A stretch of DNA of 19,362 nucleotides from positions 1-19,362 of IMG/VR virus record IMGVR_UViG_2695420739_000013; one strand, written 5' to 3'. The position numbers and the translations under genes are program-made. Positions 6,688 to 19,362 of the stretch are shown here, one piece after another (positions within the stretch are counted from its first letter, which is position 1; each line of letters starts with the position of its first letter). The notes beneath the pieces are model-generated. The model did no database searches. It worked only from the letters and a program-made list of their open reading frames with translations, and was not told the DNA's origin. The DNA comes from a virus. Lineage: Duplodnaviria; Heunggongvirae; Uroviricota; Caudoviricetes.

Positions 6688-6743
6688 AAACGGCGGCAGA
6701 GCAGTCACGGAGTAAAACTGATACCGCCAAACGTCACCAGAAA
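6688..6743 (-). ncRNA. dicF: DicF small RNA (ftsZ-repressing sRNA of the dicB operon)
   Basis: The minus-strand sequence UUUCUGGUGACGUUUGGCGGUAUCAGUUUUACUCCGUGACUGCUCUGCCGCCG followed by U-run matches the K-12 DicF sequence as I recall it, differing at about one position. Confidence 0.75.
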
Positions 6744-10921: not shown

Positions 10922-11289
10922 ATTAAAGAGCATTAGTTCAGATGTGAATTGACATTGTGTGGCACAGGGTTGGGCTAGCGTGGGGGTTTGCTTTGTGTAA
11001 GAAACGGATGCTCTGCAAATTACTACTAATGCTTAATGTTAGTCTGATCTGCTCCCCGATGATTAATACACCGCTATGTTAGTAATGTCTGTAGATCGCT
11101 GTGTGTTGCATCCATCGGTTGACCCCACAGTCCAAACCAGACTGTCAGCTTTGATTCGATTCTATCTACTCAACCTGTCAGGTAATGTCTGAGCTAATAC
11201 ACAGAGTACGGCTATCGCGAACTTTAAGCTAGGTATCTGATACGCACCGTTCACTTGTTTGTACTTCTTGCACTGACTAGCTATCGTGC

Positions 11290-11322
11290 GCAGTTATTTA
11301 TAGGTAATCTCCAGTGTATAAT
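11290..11322 (+). promoter_or_regulatory. Candidate sigma70 promoter for the 281-aa island gene
   Basis: TATAAT at 11317-11322 with a weak -35 about 17 bp upstream, then AGGAGG and ATG at 11361. Pattern-based only. Confidence 0.3.
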
Positions 11323-11360
11323 TTTCCAACTTATGGGAGATTGTAAAACAGGAGGAATAT

Positions 11361-12206
11361 ATGAGGAAAAAATCGTTTGGACGTTGCCCGTTTGATTTCG
11401 ACGAAGATGTAAAAAAAATAGCCGCGATAAATAAATATATCCATGCGAAATTTGAGAGGCATAAAAATAAAATAGATAACCTAAAGGGGGTGGAACAAAA
11501 ATTGATGGTTTTACATTACTTTAATGTACTGAATGAACTTAGTAATCAGGCTATATTTTCTTTGAGTACCGGAGCCTTTTCAGCATCGGAAGTATTAACT
11601 AGAGTTATAATGGAACAGGCTGCCAATCAATTTTATATAGCAATTGATGATGGAAAAAATGCACAAGCATTACTCAAGGGTAGTAAGAAATTAGTTCATA
11701 GTAATGGGAAACGGTGGCTGGAGTGTTTAAAATCCAAAGAAATGACTAATCCAGCAGCAGATGAAAGGATTCGTATCGGAAAAGAGCTAACTGATATGTT
11801 TAATAGATTGTGGCCAAATACACCTGAATATCCTGGAACCAAAAAGCTTTTCGAAGTAATTGGCTGGGAAACACACTATCATGCCTATTACGTCCCTCTT
11901 TGTGATTCAATACATACATTCTCTGATGATATGGCAAATATAGTATCTCTATATAATGCAATCCAAAGCGATAAAACTACTGCTATCGAACTCACTCTTG
12001 CAGTTAAACAAGAAAATAAACGGCTGGCAATTTATAATGTCGTAATTGCTATTGGCCTGCGGTGTGAGGCCTTAGTAAATGTATTTAACTCTTTAGGTTA
12101 TCGAGATATTATAACTGAAATGGCGCCAACAATAGATGCAGTCAACCAGATTATAATTCGATATGATGATTTCGAACATTCCAGAATTTTTATTGTCAAT
12201 AATTAA
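11361..12206 (+). CDS. Hypothetical protein (281 aa), no recognisable catalytic motif; first gene of the AT-rich accessory island
   Basis: Long ORF with a perfect AGGAGG Shine-Dalgarno 7 nt upstream. Visibly AT-rich and Lys/Asn/Ile-rich, contrasting with the flanking prophage genes. Confidence 0.75.
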   Translation: MRKKSFGRCPFDFDEDVKKIAAINKYIHAKFERHKNKIDNLKGVEQKLMVLHYFNVLNELSNQAIFSLSTGAFSASEVLTRVIMEQAANQFYIAIDDGKNAQALLKGSKKLVHSNGKRWLECLKSKEMTNPAADERIRIGKELTDMFNRLWPNTPEYPGTKKLFEVIGWETHYHAYYVPLCDSIHTFSDDMANIVSLYNAIQSDKTTAIELTLAVKQENKRLAIYNVVIAIGLRCEALVNVFNSLGYRDIITEMAPTIDAVNQIIIRYDDFEHSRIFIVNN

Positions 12207-12259
12207 TTGGCAGAATTCGTACATGCACAACAACTAGTTATAGTTGACCTATTTCGCTC

Positions 12260-12828
12260 TTGAGAGACAACCATACTCAAATCTTCCACATTGCAGGAGA
12301 TTTGAGTATGAATACGTCACCGAGGAACAAAGACAGTATCATAGGCCCAAAAAGACCACTTCAGATATCTCATATCTGGGGGCTCCAAATCCGGCTTGAA
12401 CTGGAAGGTAAAACGCGTGATTTAGCTCGGTTTCAAGCAGAGCTACGGTGCTGCAACTGAAAAACTGGCAGTCCTATCCAATTTGAGATAACCAAAGGGA
12501 CAAGAGAAGCTGTTTCTGCATTGATAAAGCTTGGCAATTTACGCAGTAAAGACTACTTGTTCCGATCTCGGGTCGGTACTAACCAACACATATCAATCCT
12601 GCAATATAACCGAATCTTTCATAGGGGGGAGAAAAGCTTGGTCTCGAAGATTCGCTTTACAGCACACATTCCATGAGAAGAACAAAACCTTGCCTTGTCT
12701 GCAAGAAAACTAAGAATCTCCGGGTGATCCAACTTCCGTTGGGCCATAAGAAAACGGAAAGCACAGTTCGTTATCTGGGTATAGAAGTTGATGATGCATT
12801 AGAGATCTCTGAATCGATCGAAGTCTAA
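12260..12828 (+). pseudogene. Decayed tyrosine recombinase/integrase: C-terminal catalytic domain only, with an in-frame TGA and a frameshift
   Basis: The stitched translation ..KTGSPIQFEITKGTREAVSAL..DYLFRSRVGTNQHISILQYNRIFHRG/GEKLGLEDSLYSTHSMRRTKP..LGHKKTESTVRYLGIEVDDAL.. carries the H-x-x-R and LLGH...Y motifs of tyrosine recombinases. Stop at 12458-12460; frame change within a G6 run at 12624-12629; no N-terminal domain. Confidence 0.6.
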
Positions 12829-13240
12829 AGCTGTCAGGGCTGCAGCAGCAGCCCTGTGCCAAGAGCGTACCAATATATGTCTCAAAAAATTGGGCACAGG
12901 TCAATATCAATACCAACAACTCTGATTGTGCTCATGTGATTTACTCCTGTAGAAAACGCAGACAGTAAAAATATTTCACTGGCTGCTTCAGACAGGGCGT
13001 CCATCATATCATTACATAACAATAGCGGGGCACGATATCTAGACATGCAGCAACGATGGACATAGAATGAGTACAATCAAAAGCATGTTTAACTACTTTA
13101 ATTTAAAAATCTTAGAATCTTAGGTGTAGAGTTCAATACTTAGTTACATACCCTTTTGAAAGCATCACAAATCATAACTATGAGCCTGTTAAAGGCATAG
13201 GTATTCTTAATTAAGAGCATTTTAATGAGAGAAAAATAAA

Positions 13241-14614
13241 ATGAAAAGACTATATTATACCCATCATGATAGTCGAACCTTAAAACTTGCTATAGAAGGT
13301 GATGTTTCTGATAATGCGAATATTTTTACAGTAATTGTAGGTAAAAATGGCGTTGGAAAAAGCAGATTGTTATCTCAGATTGCTAAAGACTGTATTCAAG
13401 ATGTTCATTTCTTGAAAACTTTTAATCCATTATTTGACAGAGAAATAACACCAAAGTTAATTGCCGTATCTACCAGCCCATTCGATAAATTCCCTCCAGG
13501 GCGTAGGTCATTAAATCACCAAAGGAAAGAAAATAATTATCGCTATGTGGGTATGCGTGGAGAAGGCCCCTTCGGCGTATCAAATGCCGTATCCCTTTTA
13601 TCTTCAGCAGCGAGAGGTTGGCTAGAGAAACTTGCTTATTCAGAAAATCCTGCAAATTTACTCGATGTTTTTCATTCTATTGATTTTGAGCCCCATATAG
13701 AGTTTGTATTTAAACCAACTTACAACGGACCGGACACTCCTGACTATAACTTCATTGGTGTATATTCAGATGAGATATTAACGGAAGTTAAGGAGTTATA
13801 TTTAAAATACAATATAAAAATTGACAGGAAGAATATTGAGAGTCTCTTAAAGTTAAACTCCGAATCACGTCATGATATTTACGAAGCACTGGTTGAAATT
13901 AATCGATTTGAACCTGAACGTAGGGCTGTAACCTTGTCAGTCGATTTTACCAATGGTGAAACATTGGTTGGCTCGACTTATGCGAATAATTATTTTTCTA
14001 GATCAATTCTTAAACTTATGAACGCTGGCTTCATGAGATTGATGGATATGCGACTCATAAAAAAAAGCTATGGTCCCATGTCACTTAAACGTGCGAGCTC
14101 GGGAGAACAATGTTTATTAGTGATGTTGCTTGGAATTGCAGGGCATATAACTGATGGTTCTATAATATTAATTGATGAACCGGAAATAAGCTTGCATCCT
14201 CGATGGCAGGAAGAGTTTATCATTATGTTAACAAAAGCATTTTTAACTTACTCAGGTTGTCAATTCATAATTGCAACTCATTCACCACAAATAATATCCA
14301 ATTTGCCGAATAAAGGTTGTTATATAACATCTTTGTCGAAAAGTTATCTTTATAAAGCAAAATACTTTAGCAACCGGTCTGCAGACTATCAACTTGCGGA
14401 ACTATTTGATGCCCCTGGCATTATGAATGAATACATTGCCAGGTTAGCTTTCAATTTACTTTCAAAAGTTAAGACTGCTAAGTTAGTAACAGATGATAAT
14501 TGGCGTGAATTAAAACAACTCCAACTTCTCCTTGAAAACGTTAATAGTAATGACCCTATTAATGAACTCGTAAATTCCGTATCTCAGGTGTGTGAAATTT
14601 ATGCCAAAAATTAA
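13241..14614 (+). CDS. ABC-type (AAA_15/AAA_21-like) ATPase, Septu PtuA-like
   Basis: 457 aa. Walker A GKNGVGKS (residues 34-41), ABC-signature-like SSGEQ, Walker B IILIDEPE, D-loop SLHP, H-loop ATHSP. AT-rich. Its 3' end overlaps the following HNH gene. Confidence 0.85.
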   Translation: MKRLYYTHHDSRTLKLAIEGDVSDNANIFTVIVGKNGVGKSRLLSQIAKDCIQDVHFLKTFNPLFDREITPKLIAVSTSPFDKFPPGRRSLNHQRKENNYRYVGMRGEGPFGVSNAVSLLSSAARGWLEKLAYSENPANLLDVFHSIDFEPHIEFVFKPTYNGPDTPDYNFIGVYSDEILTEVKELYLKYNIKIDRKNIESLLKLNSESRHDIYEALVEINRFEPERRAVTLSVDFTNGETLVGSTYANNYFSRSILKLMNAGFMRLMDMRLIKKSYGPMSLKRASSGEQCLLVMLLGIAGHITDGSIILIDEPEISLHPRWQEEFIIMLTKAFLTYSGCQFIIATHSPQIISNLPNKGCYITSLSKSYLYKAKYFSNRSADYQLAELFDAPGIMNEYIARLAFNLLSKVKTAKLVTDDNWRELKQLQLLLENVNSNDPINELVNSVSQVCEIYAKN

Positions 14615-15236
14615 AAATCCAATTAGATTCAGCGCAGAGTCATTAGATATTATTGAGAAAAAATTGTCTTCTCCAGATTTTAAGCATACCAACTGGGGAG
14701 ATGATGATTTGCAAGTTCTCCGTGCAGAAATTAGAAATCATTACAGAGAAGAACAAAAGCTAGAATGTGTATATTGTCATGAGCCTATTGGGGTAAGAGC
14801 TGCACAAGCTGCTCCTATAGAGCATATTGTGCCAAAATCTCAATATCTATGTTTTATTTTTGAACCTAAGAATCTATGTGTAGTATGTCCTGACTGCAAT
14901 GAATTCAAAGGTAAAAATGAAGTGTTATTTGAACCCGTAATAAATGGGGGGCGGCGCAAAAACTATCCAACTGCATCTGCATCATTTCGCATCGTTCATC
15001 CACATATAGATGATTATGAGATGCATATTATAAAAGCAAATCGTGTTTATGTGGACAAAACACCTAAAGGGCACTATACCATTGGAATATGTAAACTAAA
15101 TAGATTTTTTCATTATTTTGGGATGTGTGATGAATTTGTTAATGATGCAAAAATTGCTGAGACAAATGAAAATTTTTTCAAAAAAGGTAGTATTACTACT
15201 AATGAATTATTGGATGATGACATTCATTTGATTTAA
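14601..15236 (+). CDS. HNH endonuclease, Septu PtuB-like
   Basis: ATG at 14601 (track ORF from GTG 14592) overlaps the ATPase gene by 14 bp. HNH-type motifs CVYCH...EHIVPKS...CVVCPDCN (two CxxC pairs flanking the catalytic His). Confidence 0.85.
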   Translation: MPKIKNPIRFSAESLDIIEKKLSSPDFKHTNWGDDDLQVLRAEIRNHYREEQKLECVYCHEPIGVRAAQAAPIEHIVPKSQYLCFIFEPKNLCVVCPDCNEFKGKNEVLFEPVINGGRRKNYPTASASFRIVHPHIDDYEMHIIKANRVYVDKTPKGHYTIGICKLNRFFHYFGMCDEFVNDAKIAETNENFFKKGSITTNELLDDDIHLI

Positions 15237-15549
15237 CTATGAATTATTATATTGTAAAGTAATCAGGTAAGATATGTTAGACAGTGAGACTATTGCCTTA
15301 CAGAATTCATTATTCTTATGGATCGCCTTTCTGACTGATTTCATATTGGCGGGGTAACGGGAGTTAAGTAGAATGGCTGCGGGTGCTTGAGGCTATCTGT
15401 CTCAGGCATGAACACCAAAGGCAGATAGAGAAAAGCCCCAGTTAACATTACGCGTCCTGCAAGACGCTTAACATTAATCTGAGGCCAATTTCATGCTAGA
15501 CACATGTAGGTTAGCCTCTTACGTGCCGGAAGGCAAGGAGAAGCAGGCT

Positions 15550-15705
15550 ATGAAGCAGCAAAAGGCGATGTTAATCGCCCTGATCGTCATCTGTTTAACC
15601 GTCATAGTGACGACACTGGTAACGAGGAAAGACCTCTGCGAGGTACGAATCCGAACCGGCCAGACGGAGGTCGCTGTCTTCACAGCTTACGAACCTGAGG
15701 AGTAA
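15550..15705 (+). CDS. hokD: Hok/Gef-family type I toxin (HokD/RelF-like), 51 aa
   Basis: MKQQKAMLIALIVICLTVIVTTLVTRKDLCEVRIRTGQTEVAVFTAYEPEE matches K-12 HokD as I recall it, differing at about one residue. The in-frame upstream extension from 15493 is what the ORF track reports as 70 aa. Confidence 0.85.
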   Translation: MKQQKAMLIALIVICLTVIVTTLVTRKDLCEVRIRTGQTEVAVFTAYEPEE

Positions 15706-16239: not shown

Positions 16240-16518
16240 ATGGCACGCAACGTAAAATATTACAATTCTGATAATTCGCCCGTTCTTGCCTGCACGCACG
16301 AGCGGTATTCTCACGCATTCAAGTCTGAATGGTTCCAACACCCTCCATGTACTGAAGAGCAGGCTGAATGGATAATTCAGTGTTACCGCAGGCGCGGATA
16401 CGAGGTTAAGAAAGCCCTTAGTCTCGACTACCGTCACTGGATAATCTCCGTCAGGCTTCCTTACTCTGAACGCCCACCGCGTCCGTCTCGCACATTCCAG
16501 CAACGCATCTGGAGGTAA
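16240..16518 (+). CDS. Hypothetical prophage protein (92 aa)
   Basis: ORF with a GGAG Shine-Dalgarno, directly abutting the downstream DUF968 gene. No motif recognised. Confidence 0.45.
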   Translation: MARNVKYYNSDNSPVLACTHERYSHAFKSEWFQHPPCTEEQAEWIIQCYRRRGYEVKKALSLDYRHWIISVRLPYSERPPRPSRTFQQRIWR

Positions 16519-16519
16519 C

Positions 16520-17569
16520 GTGCGGGTATTACTTCGACCTGTTCTGGTACCGGAACTCGGGCTGGTGATCGTTAAGCCGGGCCGTGAATCCATGCCAGTA
16601 TTCCACAATACCCGGGTATTGATGGAGCCGGAACCGAAAAGCATGCGTAATCTGCCGTCCGGGGTCGTTCCTGCCGTTCGCCAGCCGCTGGAGGAAGACA
16701 AAACATTGCTGCCGTTTTTCAGTAACGCACGGGTGATTCGTGCTGCTGGTGGTGCAGGTGCATTGTCTGACTGGCTGTTGCGCCATATTAAATCCTGCCA
16801 GTGGCCACACGGCGATTATCATCACAGCGAAACTGTCATTCACCGTTATGGTACCGGCGCAATGGTGTTGTGCTGGCACTGCGACAACCAGCTGCGTGAC
16901 CAGACATCCGAATCACTCGAGCAACTTGCTCATCAAAACCTGTCAGCATGGATGATTGACGTCATCGGTCACGCAATAAGCGGTACGCAGGAGCGTGAAT
17001 TATCTTTGGCTGAATTATCCTGGTGGGCGGTCCGCAATCAGGTGGCGGACGCGCTACCGGAAGCGGTATTACGTCGTTCGCTGGGGGTGCGTGCGGAAAA
17101 AATCCGCTCAATGTACCGTGAAAGCGACATCGTGCCGGGAGAGCAGACCGCCACCAGCATACTGAAGCAGCGCACAAAAAATATTGCGTTACTGCCTGAC
17201 GTCCACCAGCAACAGAACCCACCACAGGAAAAGACGGTGGTCAGCATTGCCGTTGATCCTGAGTCTCCGGAATCTTTCATGAAACGACCTAAACGTCGCC
17301 GCTGGGTTAACGAGAAATACACACGCTGGGTGAAGACTCAGCCGTGTGCGTGTTGTGGTAAGCCAGCCGACGATCCCCATCACCTGATTGGTCATGGTCA
17401 GGGCGGAATGGGGACAAAATCTCACGATATTTTCACGCTACCGCTGTGTCGGGAGCATCACAACGAGCTTCATGCGGATCCGCTGGCGTTCGAAGAAAAG
17501 CATGGCTCTCAGGTTGATTTAATTTTTCGTTTTCTTGATCACGCCTTTGCAACTGGCGTGCTTGGGTAA
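16520..17569 (+). CDS. DUF968-family prophage protein (YdfU-like) with a C-terminal Cys/His-rich HNH-like region
   Basis: 349 aa, GTG start. C-terminus ..CACCGKPADDPHHLIGHG...LPLCREHHNELH.. Position upstream of rusA and Q matches Qin-type prophages. Confidence 0.7.
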   Translation: MRVLLRPVLVPELGLVIVKPGRESMPVFHNTRVLMEPEPKSMRNLPSGVVPAVRQPLEEDKTLLPFFSNARVIRAAGGAGALSDWLLRHIKSCQWPHGDYHHSETVIHRYGTGAMVLCWHCDNQLRDQTSESLEQLAHQNLSAWMIDVIGHAISGTQERELSLAELSWWAVRNQVADALPEAVLRRSLGVRAEKIRSMYRESDIVPGEQTATSILKQRTKNIALLPDVHQQQNPPQEKTVVSIAVDPESPESFMKRPKRRRWVNEKYTRWVKTQPCACCGKPADDPHHLIGHGQGGMGTKSHDIFTLPLCREHHNELHADPLAFEEKHGSQVDLIFRFLDHAFATGVLG

Positions 17570-17581
17570 AAGAGGTGACTG

Positions 17582-18334: not shown

Positions 18335-18364
18335 TGACCATATACATTGTCCGGGGCTATATTC
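18335..18364 (+). promoter_or_regulatory. Candidate Q-dependent late promoter (pR'-like)
   Basis: TTGACC at 18335-18340, an 18-bp spacer, then TATATT at 18359-18364, immediately downstream of Q. Confidence 0.45.
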
Positions 18365-18425
18365 CTCGCGCGTCAGCAAAATCTGGCGTCGGGATTGGAA
18401 CCCCGGATATTCAACCGCGACAGAC

Positions 18426-18450
18426 ACACGCCGCGAGCGTGTTTTTTATT
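18426..18450 (+). terminator. tR'-like intrinsic terminator ending a short leader transcript (Q antitermination target)
   Basis: Seen in sequence: ACACGC-cgcga-GCGTGT then TTTTTTATT, about 60-80 nt downstream of the candidate late promoter. Confidence 0.5.
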
Positions 18451-18611
18451 GTCGTAAGCACACGCACATCTGAATAATGGTGGGGCGTATGGGGGAGCTG
18501 AAAGGCTCGCCGGTTGGTTGATCCGGTAGTTCCAACCCTGTACGTCTCACCACCCAATGATTGGAACCTGACGGTGGTGATAGTTAAATCCATCAACCAG
18601 AGGGCGTTATC

Positions 18612-19273: not shown

Positions 19274-19362
19274 GTGCACAGAAAACCCCCAGCTAGGCTG
19301 GGGGTTCCGGAAAGCTTTCAGCTTTGAGCCAGTTATTAAAACCCCTTTTGATTTGTTAAAAC
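19268..19362. repeat. Right copy of the 95-bp perfect inverted repeat (partner 25-119); truncated by the window end
   Basis: Seen in sequence: exact reverse complement of 25-119. The match reaches the final base of the window, so the repeat may be longer. Confidence 0.85.

Follow-up and report, generated by a model that had tools for sequence, protein, structure and literature searches.

An overlapping ptuA–ptuB gene pair in the cargo slot of a Qin-like lambdoid prophage is very probably a Septu type I anti-phage system

Two co-oriented, overlapping genes of a lambdoid E. coli prophage, one for an ABC-type ATPase and one for an HNH nuclease, raise the question of whether they form an anti-phage system and, if so, of which kind. 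They were analysed within a window of 19,362 nt (the whole stretch of DNA under study, from IMG/VR record IMGVR_UViG_2695420739_000013), and very probably make up a Septu type I system of two genes that forms part of the cargo of a Qin-like lambdoid prophage. The system is an already known one, recognised end to end by existing defence-finder profiles. The original prediction, made without database searches, had placed overlapping genes for proteins of 457 and about 211 aa at 13241–15236, and both ORFs are present, with ptuB starting at ATG 14601. The features of the gene pair are as follows.

13241–14614, + strand: ptuA, encoding an ABC/SMC-type ATPase of 457 aa (ATG-initiated ORF with a full-length match to the PADLOC PtuA1 model)
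14601–15236, + strand: ptuB, encoding a zinc-finger HNH nuclease of 211 aa (ORF with ATG at 14601 and a full-length match to the PADLOC PtuB1 model)
14601–14614, + strand: 14 nt overlap of the end of ptuA with the beginning of ptuB, read from the sequence
14585–14589, + strand: AGGTG, a Shine-Dalgarno-like sequence before ptuB
12829–13240, + strand: AT-rich intergenic stretch 5′ of ptuA, the putative native promoter region (consensus scan)

The start of ptuB at 14601 is that given by RefSeq, and Met1 is invariant among 33 homologues, each of which begins 'MP.I', so that PtuB is 211 aa long and the overlap with ptuA is 14 nt. An in-frame GTG at 14592 (214 aa) is an unlikely alternative start.

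The proposed match to the Septu pair PtuA/PtuB was upheld by the PADLOC profiles. PtuA residues 2–455 align with positions 3–447 (of 448) of model PDLC00283 (E = 1.2e-165, 550 bits), and PtuB residues 7–212 with positions 2–205 (of 213) of model PDLC00325 (E = 1.1e-83, 278 bits). Matches of this strength, together with long ORFs in DNA of 35% GC, show that ptuA and ptuB are not chance ORFs. The Pfam searches suggested at the outset also gave matches exceeding the gathering thresholds, PtuA to AAA_21 (2.3e-20) and AAA_15 (1.4e-16), and PtuB to HNH (4.5e-5; 23.9 bits, cut-off 21.4). Septu type I in PADLOC (the family of Doron et al. 2018, as outlined in PMC8565338) is the same two-gene ATPase–HNH operon without a reverse transcriptase, and no family-level difference from the pair described here is detectable. 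The reservation that the genes could equally be an undescribed ATPase–nuclease variant is therefore unsupported, as they fall within a catalogued Septu type I subfamily. RefSeq labels the proteins 'AAA family ATPase' (PtuA) and 'HNH endonuclease' (PtuB), and a literature search found no publication on the PDLC00283/PDLC00325 subfamily and none citing its accessions.

All of the ATPase and HNH motif strings originally quoted are present on translation. The motifs and structural elements of the two proteins, all on the + strand, are:

13340–13363, + strand: PtuA Walker A, GKNGVGKS (K40), checked by translation
14093–14113, + strand: PtuA signature, ASSGEQC (S286–Q290, including Gln290), checked by translation
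14162–14185, + strand: PtuA Walker B, IILIDEPE (D312, E313), checked by translation
14273–14287, + strand: PtuA H-loop, ATHSP (H347), checked by translation
14414–14611, + strand: PtuA C-terminal three-helix extension
14766–14780, + strand: PtuB CVYCH (CxxC at 14766–14777), checked by translation
14820–14840, + strand: PtuB EHIVPKS (H75; E74–H75 at 14820–14825), checked by translation
14871–14873, + strand: PtuB N91
14877–14900, + strand: PtuB CVVCPDCN (CxxCxxCN), checked by translation
14994–15011, + strand: PtuB VHPHID
15090–15104, + strand: PtuB CKLNR

Residues K40/S41, S286–Q290, D312/E313 and H347 are invariant in 35 PtuA homologues (43–90% identity). PtuA is predicted to hydrolyse ATP, since the canonical signature glutamine, the Walker B glutamate and the H-loop histidine are all kept. 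Among the 33 PtuB homologues, C56, C59, E74, H75, N91, C96, C99, H133, H135 and D137 are invariant, and H75, N91, N100 and the two CxxC pairs vary little or not at all. The homologues of the two proteins reach down to about 40% identity.

Fold comparisons gave strong matches to solved PtuA chains and weaker ones to PtuB chains. The best 37 PDB matches found by Foldseek for the AF2 model of PtuA (pLDDT 82) are exclusively PtuA chains (retron-Eco7/Ec78/Ec83 and Septu 8EEA), with E-values of 8e-9 to 1e-6 and a probability of 1.0; the TM-scores are modest (about 0.35), as expected of a flexible multi-domain protein. For the PtuB model (pLDDT 77), the top matches are the PtuB chains 9e8z_E, 8eea_G and 9n69_F, aligned over their full length with E-values of only 0.02–0.05; those to retron Ec83 PtuB and Septu 8eea_G have probabilities of 0.91–0.98 and modest TM-scores (0.41–0.49). 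A plain-sequence search of the PDB with PtuB gave no matches, and solved PtuB chains were reached only by the fold search and by a clade profile (9n69_F, 5e-6; 9e8z_E, 5.6e-5; 8ee7_C, 0.014), the latter lending support to the structural link.

The PtuAB modules of retron-Eco7/Ec78 and retron-Eco4/Ec83 head both the fold matches of PtuA (E about 1e-8) and the profile matches of PtuB. Retron PtuA proteins, however, are about 550 aa long, some 90 aa longer than PtuA of the present pair, and are reported to have specific elements, an N-terminal extension and a helical flap (PMC12819146). Assignment to retron type I-A (Septu type II) was rejected. The annotation shows no reverse transcriptase in the 14 kb to either side of ptuAB, and no retron RNA family (msr/msd) is among the matches of an Rfam scan, which places the pair in Septu type I and not with the retrons. 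The scores against the NCBIfam equivalogs of retron Ec78 are also far below their cut-offs (NF041760 for PtuA, 65.8 bits against 500; NF041761 for PtuB, 30.6 against 150).

Overall, sequence identity to characterised PtuA and PtuB proteins is very low, at 12–18% in structural alignments. The Septu system of E. coli ATCC 25922 (PDB 8EE4, 8EE7, 8EEA and 8SUX) likewise consists of a stand-alone PtuA and PtuB with equal domain order; fold searches with the present proteins list its PtuB (8eea_G, probability 0.98, TM 0.49) and PtuA (8eea, E = 2e-7), and the additional H-x-H and L-N motifs of 8EE7 PtuB align with those found here. In sequence, similarity to ATCC 25922 is limited to the C-terminal ABC segment for PtuA (E = 3e-7) and is slight for PtuB (E = 0.014), with identities of only 12–20% in structural alignments. 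The two CxxC zinc-knuckle pairs of PtuB do not align with the cysteines in 8EE7 PtuB, and PtuA carries the canonical Gln290 in its signature; PtuA of ATCC 25922 reportedly has Leu at this position and lacks ATPase activity (PMC12819146).

The second characterised E. coli system, Septu EcB88 (E. coli JBBDAGI-19-0041, WP_000981116.1 and WP_016243072.1), is also stand-alone, and its proteins are nearly equal in size to those described here (452 and 219 aa). It cleaves tRNA-Tyr and requires its Walker A/B and HNH motifs for activity (PMC13096335). However, EcB88 falls in other PADLOC subfamilies (PDLC00271 and PDLC00344), which lie near the retron I-A effectors; on the retron I-A ATPase and HNH models it scores 356 and 78 bits, compared with 71 and 32 bits for the present pair. 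The two PtuA proteins share 29% identity over about 140 aa in the C-terminal part of the ABC domain, while the PtuB proteins show no BLAST similarity; hhalign of the PtuB clade against EcB88 PtuB gave a probability of just 5%, with the HNH core nonetheless aligned. Identity with EcB88, suggested by the shared numbering of PtuB H75 and N91, was rejected after comparison with the published sequences, the numbering being coincidental.

By analogy with the solved Septu and retron PtuAB complexes, PtuA dimers would oligomerise, and the C-terminal helical extensions of PtuA would clamp PtuB by its helical C-terminal domain, keeping the nuclease inactive in a nucleotide-bound state. The AF2 models contain suitable elements (PtuA helices 392–413, 418–433 and 439–456; PtuB helices 155–203), which may be regarded as consistent with a 6:2-type interface at the level of secondary structure only. 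Phage infection would free or activate PtuB, which would then cut nucleic acid, and the infected cell would cease to support the phage, by abortive infection or growth arrest; a protective phenotype would be expected. As the subfamily differs from both characterised E. coli systems, ATCC 25922 and EcB88, we can only infer the trigger and the substrate.

Published PtuAB substrates vary (DNA nicking, ssDNA, tRNA-Tyr), and homology therefore gives no basis for assigning one here. The ATCC 25922 system (Li et al. 2024, cited in PMC12640716) nicks DNA, and DNA nicking or cleavage of this kind is somewhat more likely for the present pair than the tRNA-Tyr cleavage of EcB88 and retron-Eco7, because the pair stands far from the clade of retron-like systems. 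It is possible, though not likely, that PtuB is instead a tRNA nuclease that cuts the variable loop of host tRNA-Tyr and stops translation in infected cells: of the three E. coli PtuAB modules studied most closely, two deplete tRNA-Tyr in vivo (PMC13096335, PMC12640716), and the HNH core and domain order are shared with PtuAB systems that cleave this tRNA. The separate PADLOC subfamilies, the low retron I-A scores and the lack of BLAST similarity between the PtuB proteins, all noted above for EcB88, argue against it, as does the in vitro behaviour of Ec78 PtuAB, where tRNA cleavage was not reconstituted and plasmid DNA was nicked instead (PMC12819146). A further proposal within the Septu assignment, also not likely, is that the pair may have a mode of activation other than that of ATCC 25922 (ATP-inhibited and ATPase-dead) and may cut neither plasmid-type DNA nor tRNA-Tyr. 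The features cited for it are the two CxxC zinc knuckles and invariant H-P-H-x-D of PtuB and the fully canonical ABC site of PtuA, which is probably competent for hydrolysis.

The two genes are adjacent on the + strand, ATPase first and HNH nuclease second, and the same order is seen in three other genera. The overlap is 14–17 nt in the Klebsiella, Dickeya and P. aeruginosa pairs as well, and its presence suggests that ptuA and ptuB are translationally coupled. Overlapping ptuAB genes recur without a third conserved gene in P. aeruginosa (on an integrase island), K. variicola (in a prophage) and Dickeya, where they adjoin a GASH/DO-GTPase conflict system.

In the window, ptuAB occupies the right part of a slot whose boundaries were set by alignment with three prophages bearing other cargo. 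The slot and its neighbours are listed below.

11020–15305, no strand: AT-rich variable cargo slot (4.3 kb) of the Qin-like lambdoid prophage, both junctions by alignment
11361–12206, + strand: DUF5677 gene, 281 aa (Pfam DUF5677, 3.4e-9; phrog_4167, full length)
12244–12828, + strand: decayed tyrosine recombinase/integrase (RefSeq 'frameshifted; internal stop')
15381–15705, + strand: hok/sok type I toxin-antitoxin locus (Rfam RF01794, 117 bits; RefSeq hokD)
15381–15555, + strand: sok RNA (Rfam 'sok' family, RF01794, 117 bits)
15550–15705, + strand: hokD CDS (RefSeq)

The slot lies between the replication genes and sok/hokD, and contains the DUF5677 gene, the recombinase pseudogene, ptuA and ptuB. 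In related prophages the same position holds relBE (K-12), an Sll1717-family ATPase, a DUF4209 protein, or an SMEK protein with a methyltransferase. This varying cargo bears out the earlier description of the locus as a prophage defence hotspot, and the decayed recombinase and hok gene reported next to the pair were both found. The recombinase reading frame (about 12244–12828) is interrupted by frameshifts and stops, and three-frame translation reveals a C-terminal LGHKKTESTVRYL motif; hok/sok is the conserved right flank directly 3′ of the slot and is separate from Septu. IS elements are scattered across these prophages, and no tRNA genes were found within the window. A discrete integrative element was considered and rejected, there being no convincing direct or inverted repeats at the flanks of the cassette.

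The DUF5677 gene is a slot-mate outside the conserved Septu unit. A three-gene system including it was rejected: it has no PADLOC match, it is not beside ptuAB in other genera, and another E. coli genome carries DUF5677 and an integrase without ptuAB. Other workers assayed a distant DUF5677 ORF, and it was not one of the genes active in defence.

Among 5,426 complete E. coli genomes, 19 carry the pair, one of them EPEC E2348/69. That it is an inactive or silenced relic of a decaying cryptic prophage, giving no protection now, is improbable. In favour of decay, the adjoining recombinase is a pseudogene, IS elements are dispersed in these prophages, and ptuA is frameshifted in one of the 19 genomes. 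Two sigma-70-like sites lie 5′ of ptuA (13040–13068, 10/12 matches; 13089–13118, 9/12), but counts from the promoter and terminator scan do not exceed shuffle expectation, so the ptuA promoter is proposed only tentatively. The AT-rich setting described originally is confirmed by a GC content of 0.32–0.37 across 13001–15500, compared with about 0.50 in the flanks (ptuA 35.2%, ptuB 33.0%), and DNA of such low GC is a typical target of H-NS silencing in E. coli. Against decay, both ORFs are intact in the other 18 genomes, at identities of at least 99.6%, and all catalytic residues are kept. Comparison of coding sequences with orthologues from Klebsiella and Dickeya shows purifying selection on ptuA (dN/dS 0.13–0.14) and on ptuB (0.15–0.23); P. 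aeruginosa was unusable for this purpose because synonymous sites are saturated.

An undescribed ATPase–nuclease system, or a relative of PARIS, OLD/Gabija or restriction-associated AAA ATPases, is hardly tenable as an alternative to Septu. The C-terminal half of PtuA has PARIS AriA as its best plain-sequence match in the PDB (E = 1.6e-12; profile 3.6e-17), and NCBIfam restrict_AAA_1 matches at 1.5e-14, though far under its cut-off. That AriA and not a PtuA heads the plain-sequence matches indicates that the ABC core alone cannot tell these families apart. AriA (PDB 8UX9, 8V45) is an ABC ATPase of the same superfamily, but the likeness is confined to residues about 270–354, and such matches span only the signature/Walker B segment (about 278–354). 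The PADLOC AriA model gives a partial match of 78 bits, compared with 550 bits over the full length for PtuA, and Foldseek places PtuA chains above AriA. The partner of AriA is the TOPRIM protein AriB; here it is an HNH protein that fits PtuB1 end to end, and with no TOPRIM match in Pfam or PADLOC, both PARIS and OLD/Gabija-type ABC–TOPRIM systems were rejected. Similarly remote is a role for ptuAB in the phage itself, for instance that of a homing or packaging-associated HNH endonuclease helped by an ATPase: HNH endonucleases are frequent in phage genomes and PtuB belongs over its full length to phrog_36683 (function unknown), but the pair is distant from the terminase, inside a variable moron slot, occurs also outside prophages (the P. 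aeruginosa and Dickeya settings above), and has no close copy among INPHARED phage genomes, where the only match, to a Vibrio phage, covers 250 nt (70% identity).

With ptuAB read as Septu type I, the main gain is one of annotation, generic RefSeq labels being replaced by a named system in 19 complete E. coli genomes, E2348/69 among them. The Qin-like prophage slot, which is the relBE position in K-12, can hold defence genes, and this could aid hotspot-guided discovery. As the subfamily is remote from all PtuAB systems tested so far, it would be a reasonable added data point for substrate choice across Septu. If its activation and substrate do prove to be different, it would represent a third Septu effector mode, in a reference EPEC strain.

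The original prediction placed a Septu-like pair, an ATPase gene followed by an HNH nuclease gene, at 13241–15236, and both open reading frames were confirmed at these positions and at the sizes claimed; all of the motifs quoted for them were recovered by translation. The description of the surroundings was also accurate. GC content falls to 0.32–0.37 over 13001–15500 against about 0.50 in the flanks, and the pair lies between a tyrosine recombinase remnant and a hok toxin gene.

Features of the window around ptuAB
11020–15305, variable cargo slot between the replication genes and sok/hokD-rem, from alignment with three related prophages
11361–12206, + strand, DUF5677 gene, 281 aa, phrog_4167 at full length
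12244–12828, + strand, tyrosine recombinase pseudogene (frameshifts, stops)
13241–14614, + strand, ptuA, ATG start, 457 aa
14601–15236, + strand, ptuB, ATG start, 211 aa (alternative GTG at 14592, 214 aa)
15381–15705, + strand, complete hok/sok module: sok Rfam match 15381–15555 (117 bits), mok-like ORF from 15493, hokD 15550–15705
16520–17569, + strand, DUF968 protein gene (YdfU-like), 349 aa

The ATG at 14601 is the ptuB start used in RefSeq, and has an AGGTG 11 nt upstream. Aligning 33 homologues showed that the start Met is conserved, as is the 'MP.I' that follows, indicating that PtuB is 211 aa long and that its gene overlaps ptuA by 14 nt.

Profile searches matched both proteins end to end to PADLOC Septu models, bearing out the proposed PtuA/PtuB identity. 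PtuA matched PtuA1 (PDLC00283; E = 1.2e-165, 550 bits; residues 2–455 to model positions 3–447 of 448) and PtuB matched PtuB1 (PDLC00325; E = 1.1e-83; residues 7–212 to 2–205 of 213), while the expected Pfam families were also found (AAA_21, 2.3e-20; AAA_15, 1.4e-16; HNH, 23.9 bits with a cut-off of 21.4). PADLOC separates Septu type II, the retron I-A type, from type I (PMC8565338). The NCBIfam retron-Ec78 equivalogs scored far under their cut-offs (PtuA 66 vs 500, PtuB 31 vs 150), the annotation within 14 kb of ptuAB includes no reverse transcriptase, and an Rfam search found no retron RNA. By this scheme ptuAB belongs to type I rather than type II. The system is already known as a kind and, because the subfamily has its own PADLOC models, any standard defence-annotation tool would label the pair Septu. 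A literature search found no paper citing the subfamily accessions, and no tested member was apparent.

AlphaFold2 models built from the homologue alignments were compared with solved structures. The top 37 PDB matches of the PtuA model (pLDDT 82, pTM 0.77) by Foldseek were all PtuA chains, from retron-Eco7, Ec78 and Ec83 and the solved E. coli Septu 8EEA (E 8e-9 to 1e-6, probability 1.0), although TM scores were only about 0.35, as expected from the flexible arms of the protein. Next came AriA, the PARIS ATPase (1e-6), which is also the best plain-sequence PDB match, in the signature/Walker B segment only; PtuA is paired here with an HNH protein, in contrast to the TOPRIM partner in PARIS. 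For PtuB, modelled at a pLDDT of 77 (pTM 0.67), the leading matches were retron Ec83 PtuB (E = 0.02), chain 8eea_G (probability 0.98, TM 0.49) and a retron I-A HNH protein, with Cas9 HNH domains next in rank. A PtuB-clade profile hit PtuB proteins of known structure at 5e-6, 5.6e-5 and 0.014; against the ATCC 25922 PtuB (8EE7), the HNH His, the H-x-H ('vHPHfD' vs 'IHCHI') and 'TI....LN' align. Both His of the clade's H-P-H-x-D (residues 133–137; 14997–15011) have counterparts in that protein, but the clade's two invariant CxxC pairs (residues 56–59 and 96–100; 14766–14777 and 14886–14900) face no cysteines there.

In the characterised E. coli system Septu EcB88, Walker A/B (K43, D316) and HNH (H75, N91) mutants are inactive (PMC13096335). 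The shared H75/N91 numbering raised the idea that the two systems are the same, which was rejected using the sequences in the published supplement (PMC13096335): PtuA is 29% identical over about 140 residues, and PtuB gives no BLAST similarity. PADLOC assigns the EcB88 proteins to PDLC00271 and PDLC00344; with the retron I-A models they score 356 and 78 bits, compared with 71 and 32 bits for the window pair. The ATCC 25922 Septu is equally remote in sequence; its PtuA reportedly carries Leu where the signature Gln would be, and lacks ATPase activity (PMC12819146). Where EcB88 PtuA reads 'LSQGEK', the window PtuA keeps a canonical 'SSGEQ' in which Gln290 is invariant, and is predicted to be an active ATPase.

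PtuA homologues with E ≤ 1e-10 numbered 1,541 among the scored candidates, and extend to Klebsiella (85% identity), Dickeya (70%), Cronobacter, many Pseudomonas species (43–66%), Vibrio, Stenotrophomonas and others, with PtuB homologues showing the same taxonomic spread. Across 35 PtuA sequences the invariant positions are those of Walker A (G34, G37, G39, K40, S41), the signature (A285–C291, 'ASSGEQC'), Walker B with the catalytic Glu (D312, E313), the H-loop (T346, H347, S348) and a 'STSPFDKF' block (residues 77–84). In 33 PtuB sequences C56, C59, E74, H75, N91, C93, C96 and C99 are invariant and N100 nearly so, a set that by its residues reads as an H-N-N-type HNH site with a zinc finger; the motifs H133-P-H135-x-D137 and L166-N167-R168 do not vary either. 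The ptuA/ptuB overlap is kept, at 14–17 nt, in three other genera: the P. aeruginosa pair lies in an integrase island, that of K. variicola in a prophage lysis/tail region, and that of Dickeya next to a GASH/DO-GTPase/GAP1 conflict system. These loci share no third conserved neighbour. Both genes are under purifying selection: dN/dS for ptuA is 0.14 against Klebsiella and 0.13 against Dickeya, and for ptuB 0.23 and 0.15, respectively. They are AT-rich in every host examined, suggesting a horizontally moving cassette.

By analogy with the solved homologues, PtuA and PtuB would be translationally coupled and would assemble into a complex in which pairs of PtuA C-terminal helices (predicted at 392–456) grip PtuB by its helical C-terminal domain (helices predicted at 155–203). 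The complex would be kept inactive while nucleotide-bound; infection would switch on the HNH nuclease, and nucleic acid cleavage would abort phage growth. Substrates vary among published PtuAB modules, from plasmid nicking to ssDNA or tRNA-Tyr (PMC12640716). Since the subfamily is distant from the retron-like, tRNA-cleaving clade, DNA is tentatively rated the leading candidate, at a little under even chances; tRNA would be a rather unlikely target, and other substrates take up the remainder.

E. coli Z1322HEC0003 carries the locus at 100% identity and EPEC E2348/69 at 99.8%; in the latter the annotation of the two proteins (WP_000827088, WP_001124204) goes no further than 'AAA family ATPase' and 'HNH endonuclease'. 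Among 5,426 complete E. coli genomes, 19 have it at ≥99.6% identity, one of which, Z1323PEC0010 (NZ_CP148282.1, 1970190–1972184), carries a copy 1 nt shorter, with a frameshift and ptuA annotated as two CDSs. In E2348/69 an IS481-family element is inserted between ptuB and hokD (L002, the locus from that strain, 16493–17581).

The host element is a lambdoid, Qin-like prophage with the order int-xis-exo-dicB/DicF, cI/cro-like, ydaT, replication genes, cargo, sok/hokD, rem, DUF968, RusA, Q. Its hok/sok module is complete. The Qin prophage of K-12-derived HB101 has no aligning counterpart of this upstream sok region, and there relBE sits immediately upstream of hokD. Small RNAs at 6691–6742 (−) and 18357–18557 (+) comprise DicF (72 bits), isrK (76 bits), and a C4 antisense RNA plus the a1/b1 target of that RNA (72 and 49 bits). 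The last two form an immunity RNA arrangement of P1/P7 type, here in a lambdoid prophage. STnc490 matches lie at both window ends in inverted orientation (1–103, −; 19284–19362, +), and in Z1322HEC0003 an IS200C transposase gene comes after the right-hand one. The DUF968 protein has a Cys/His-rich C-terminal end (CACCGKPADDPHHL...LCREHHNELH) resembling an HNH or zinc-finger motif.

Homology with the three related prophages ends at about 11020 and restarts at about 15305. Two other genes in this slot, the DUF5677 gene and the integrase pseudogene, are outside the conserved ptuAB unit; another E. coli genome (H20) has DUF5677 together with the integrase fragment but lacks ptuAB. The DUF5677 protein has no PADLOC match and no PDB sequence relative; a Bacillota DUF5677 ORF assayed for defence in published work was not among the active genes. 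The C-terminal catalytic region of the recombinase is still legible (LGHKKTESTVRYL), and no flanking repeats marking a small integrative element were found. Other occupants of the slot (L012–L015, prophages with other cargo) are a Sll1717-family P-loop ATPase, a DUF4209 protein, a SMEK protein with a SAM methyltransferase, and, in HB101, relBE with flxA/ydfV. The suggested prophage hotspot is thus supported as a variable cargo slot whose occupants differ among related prophages, and this slot of Qin-like prophages could be mined for new defence genes.
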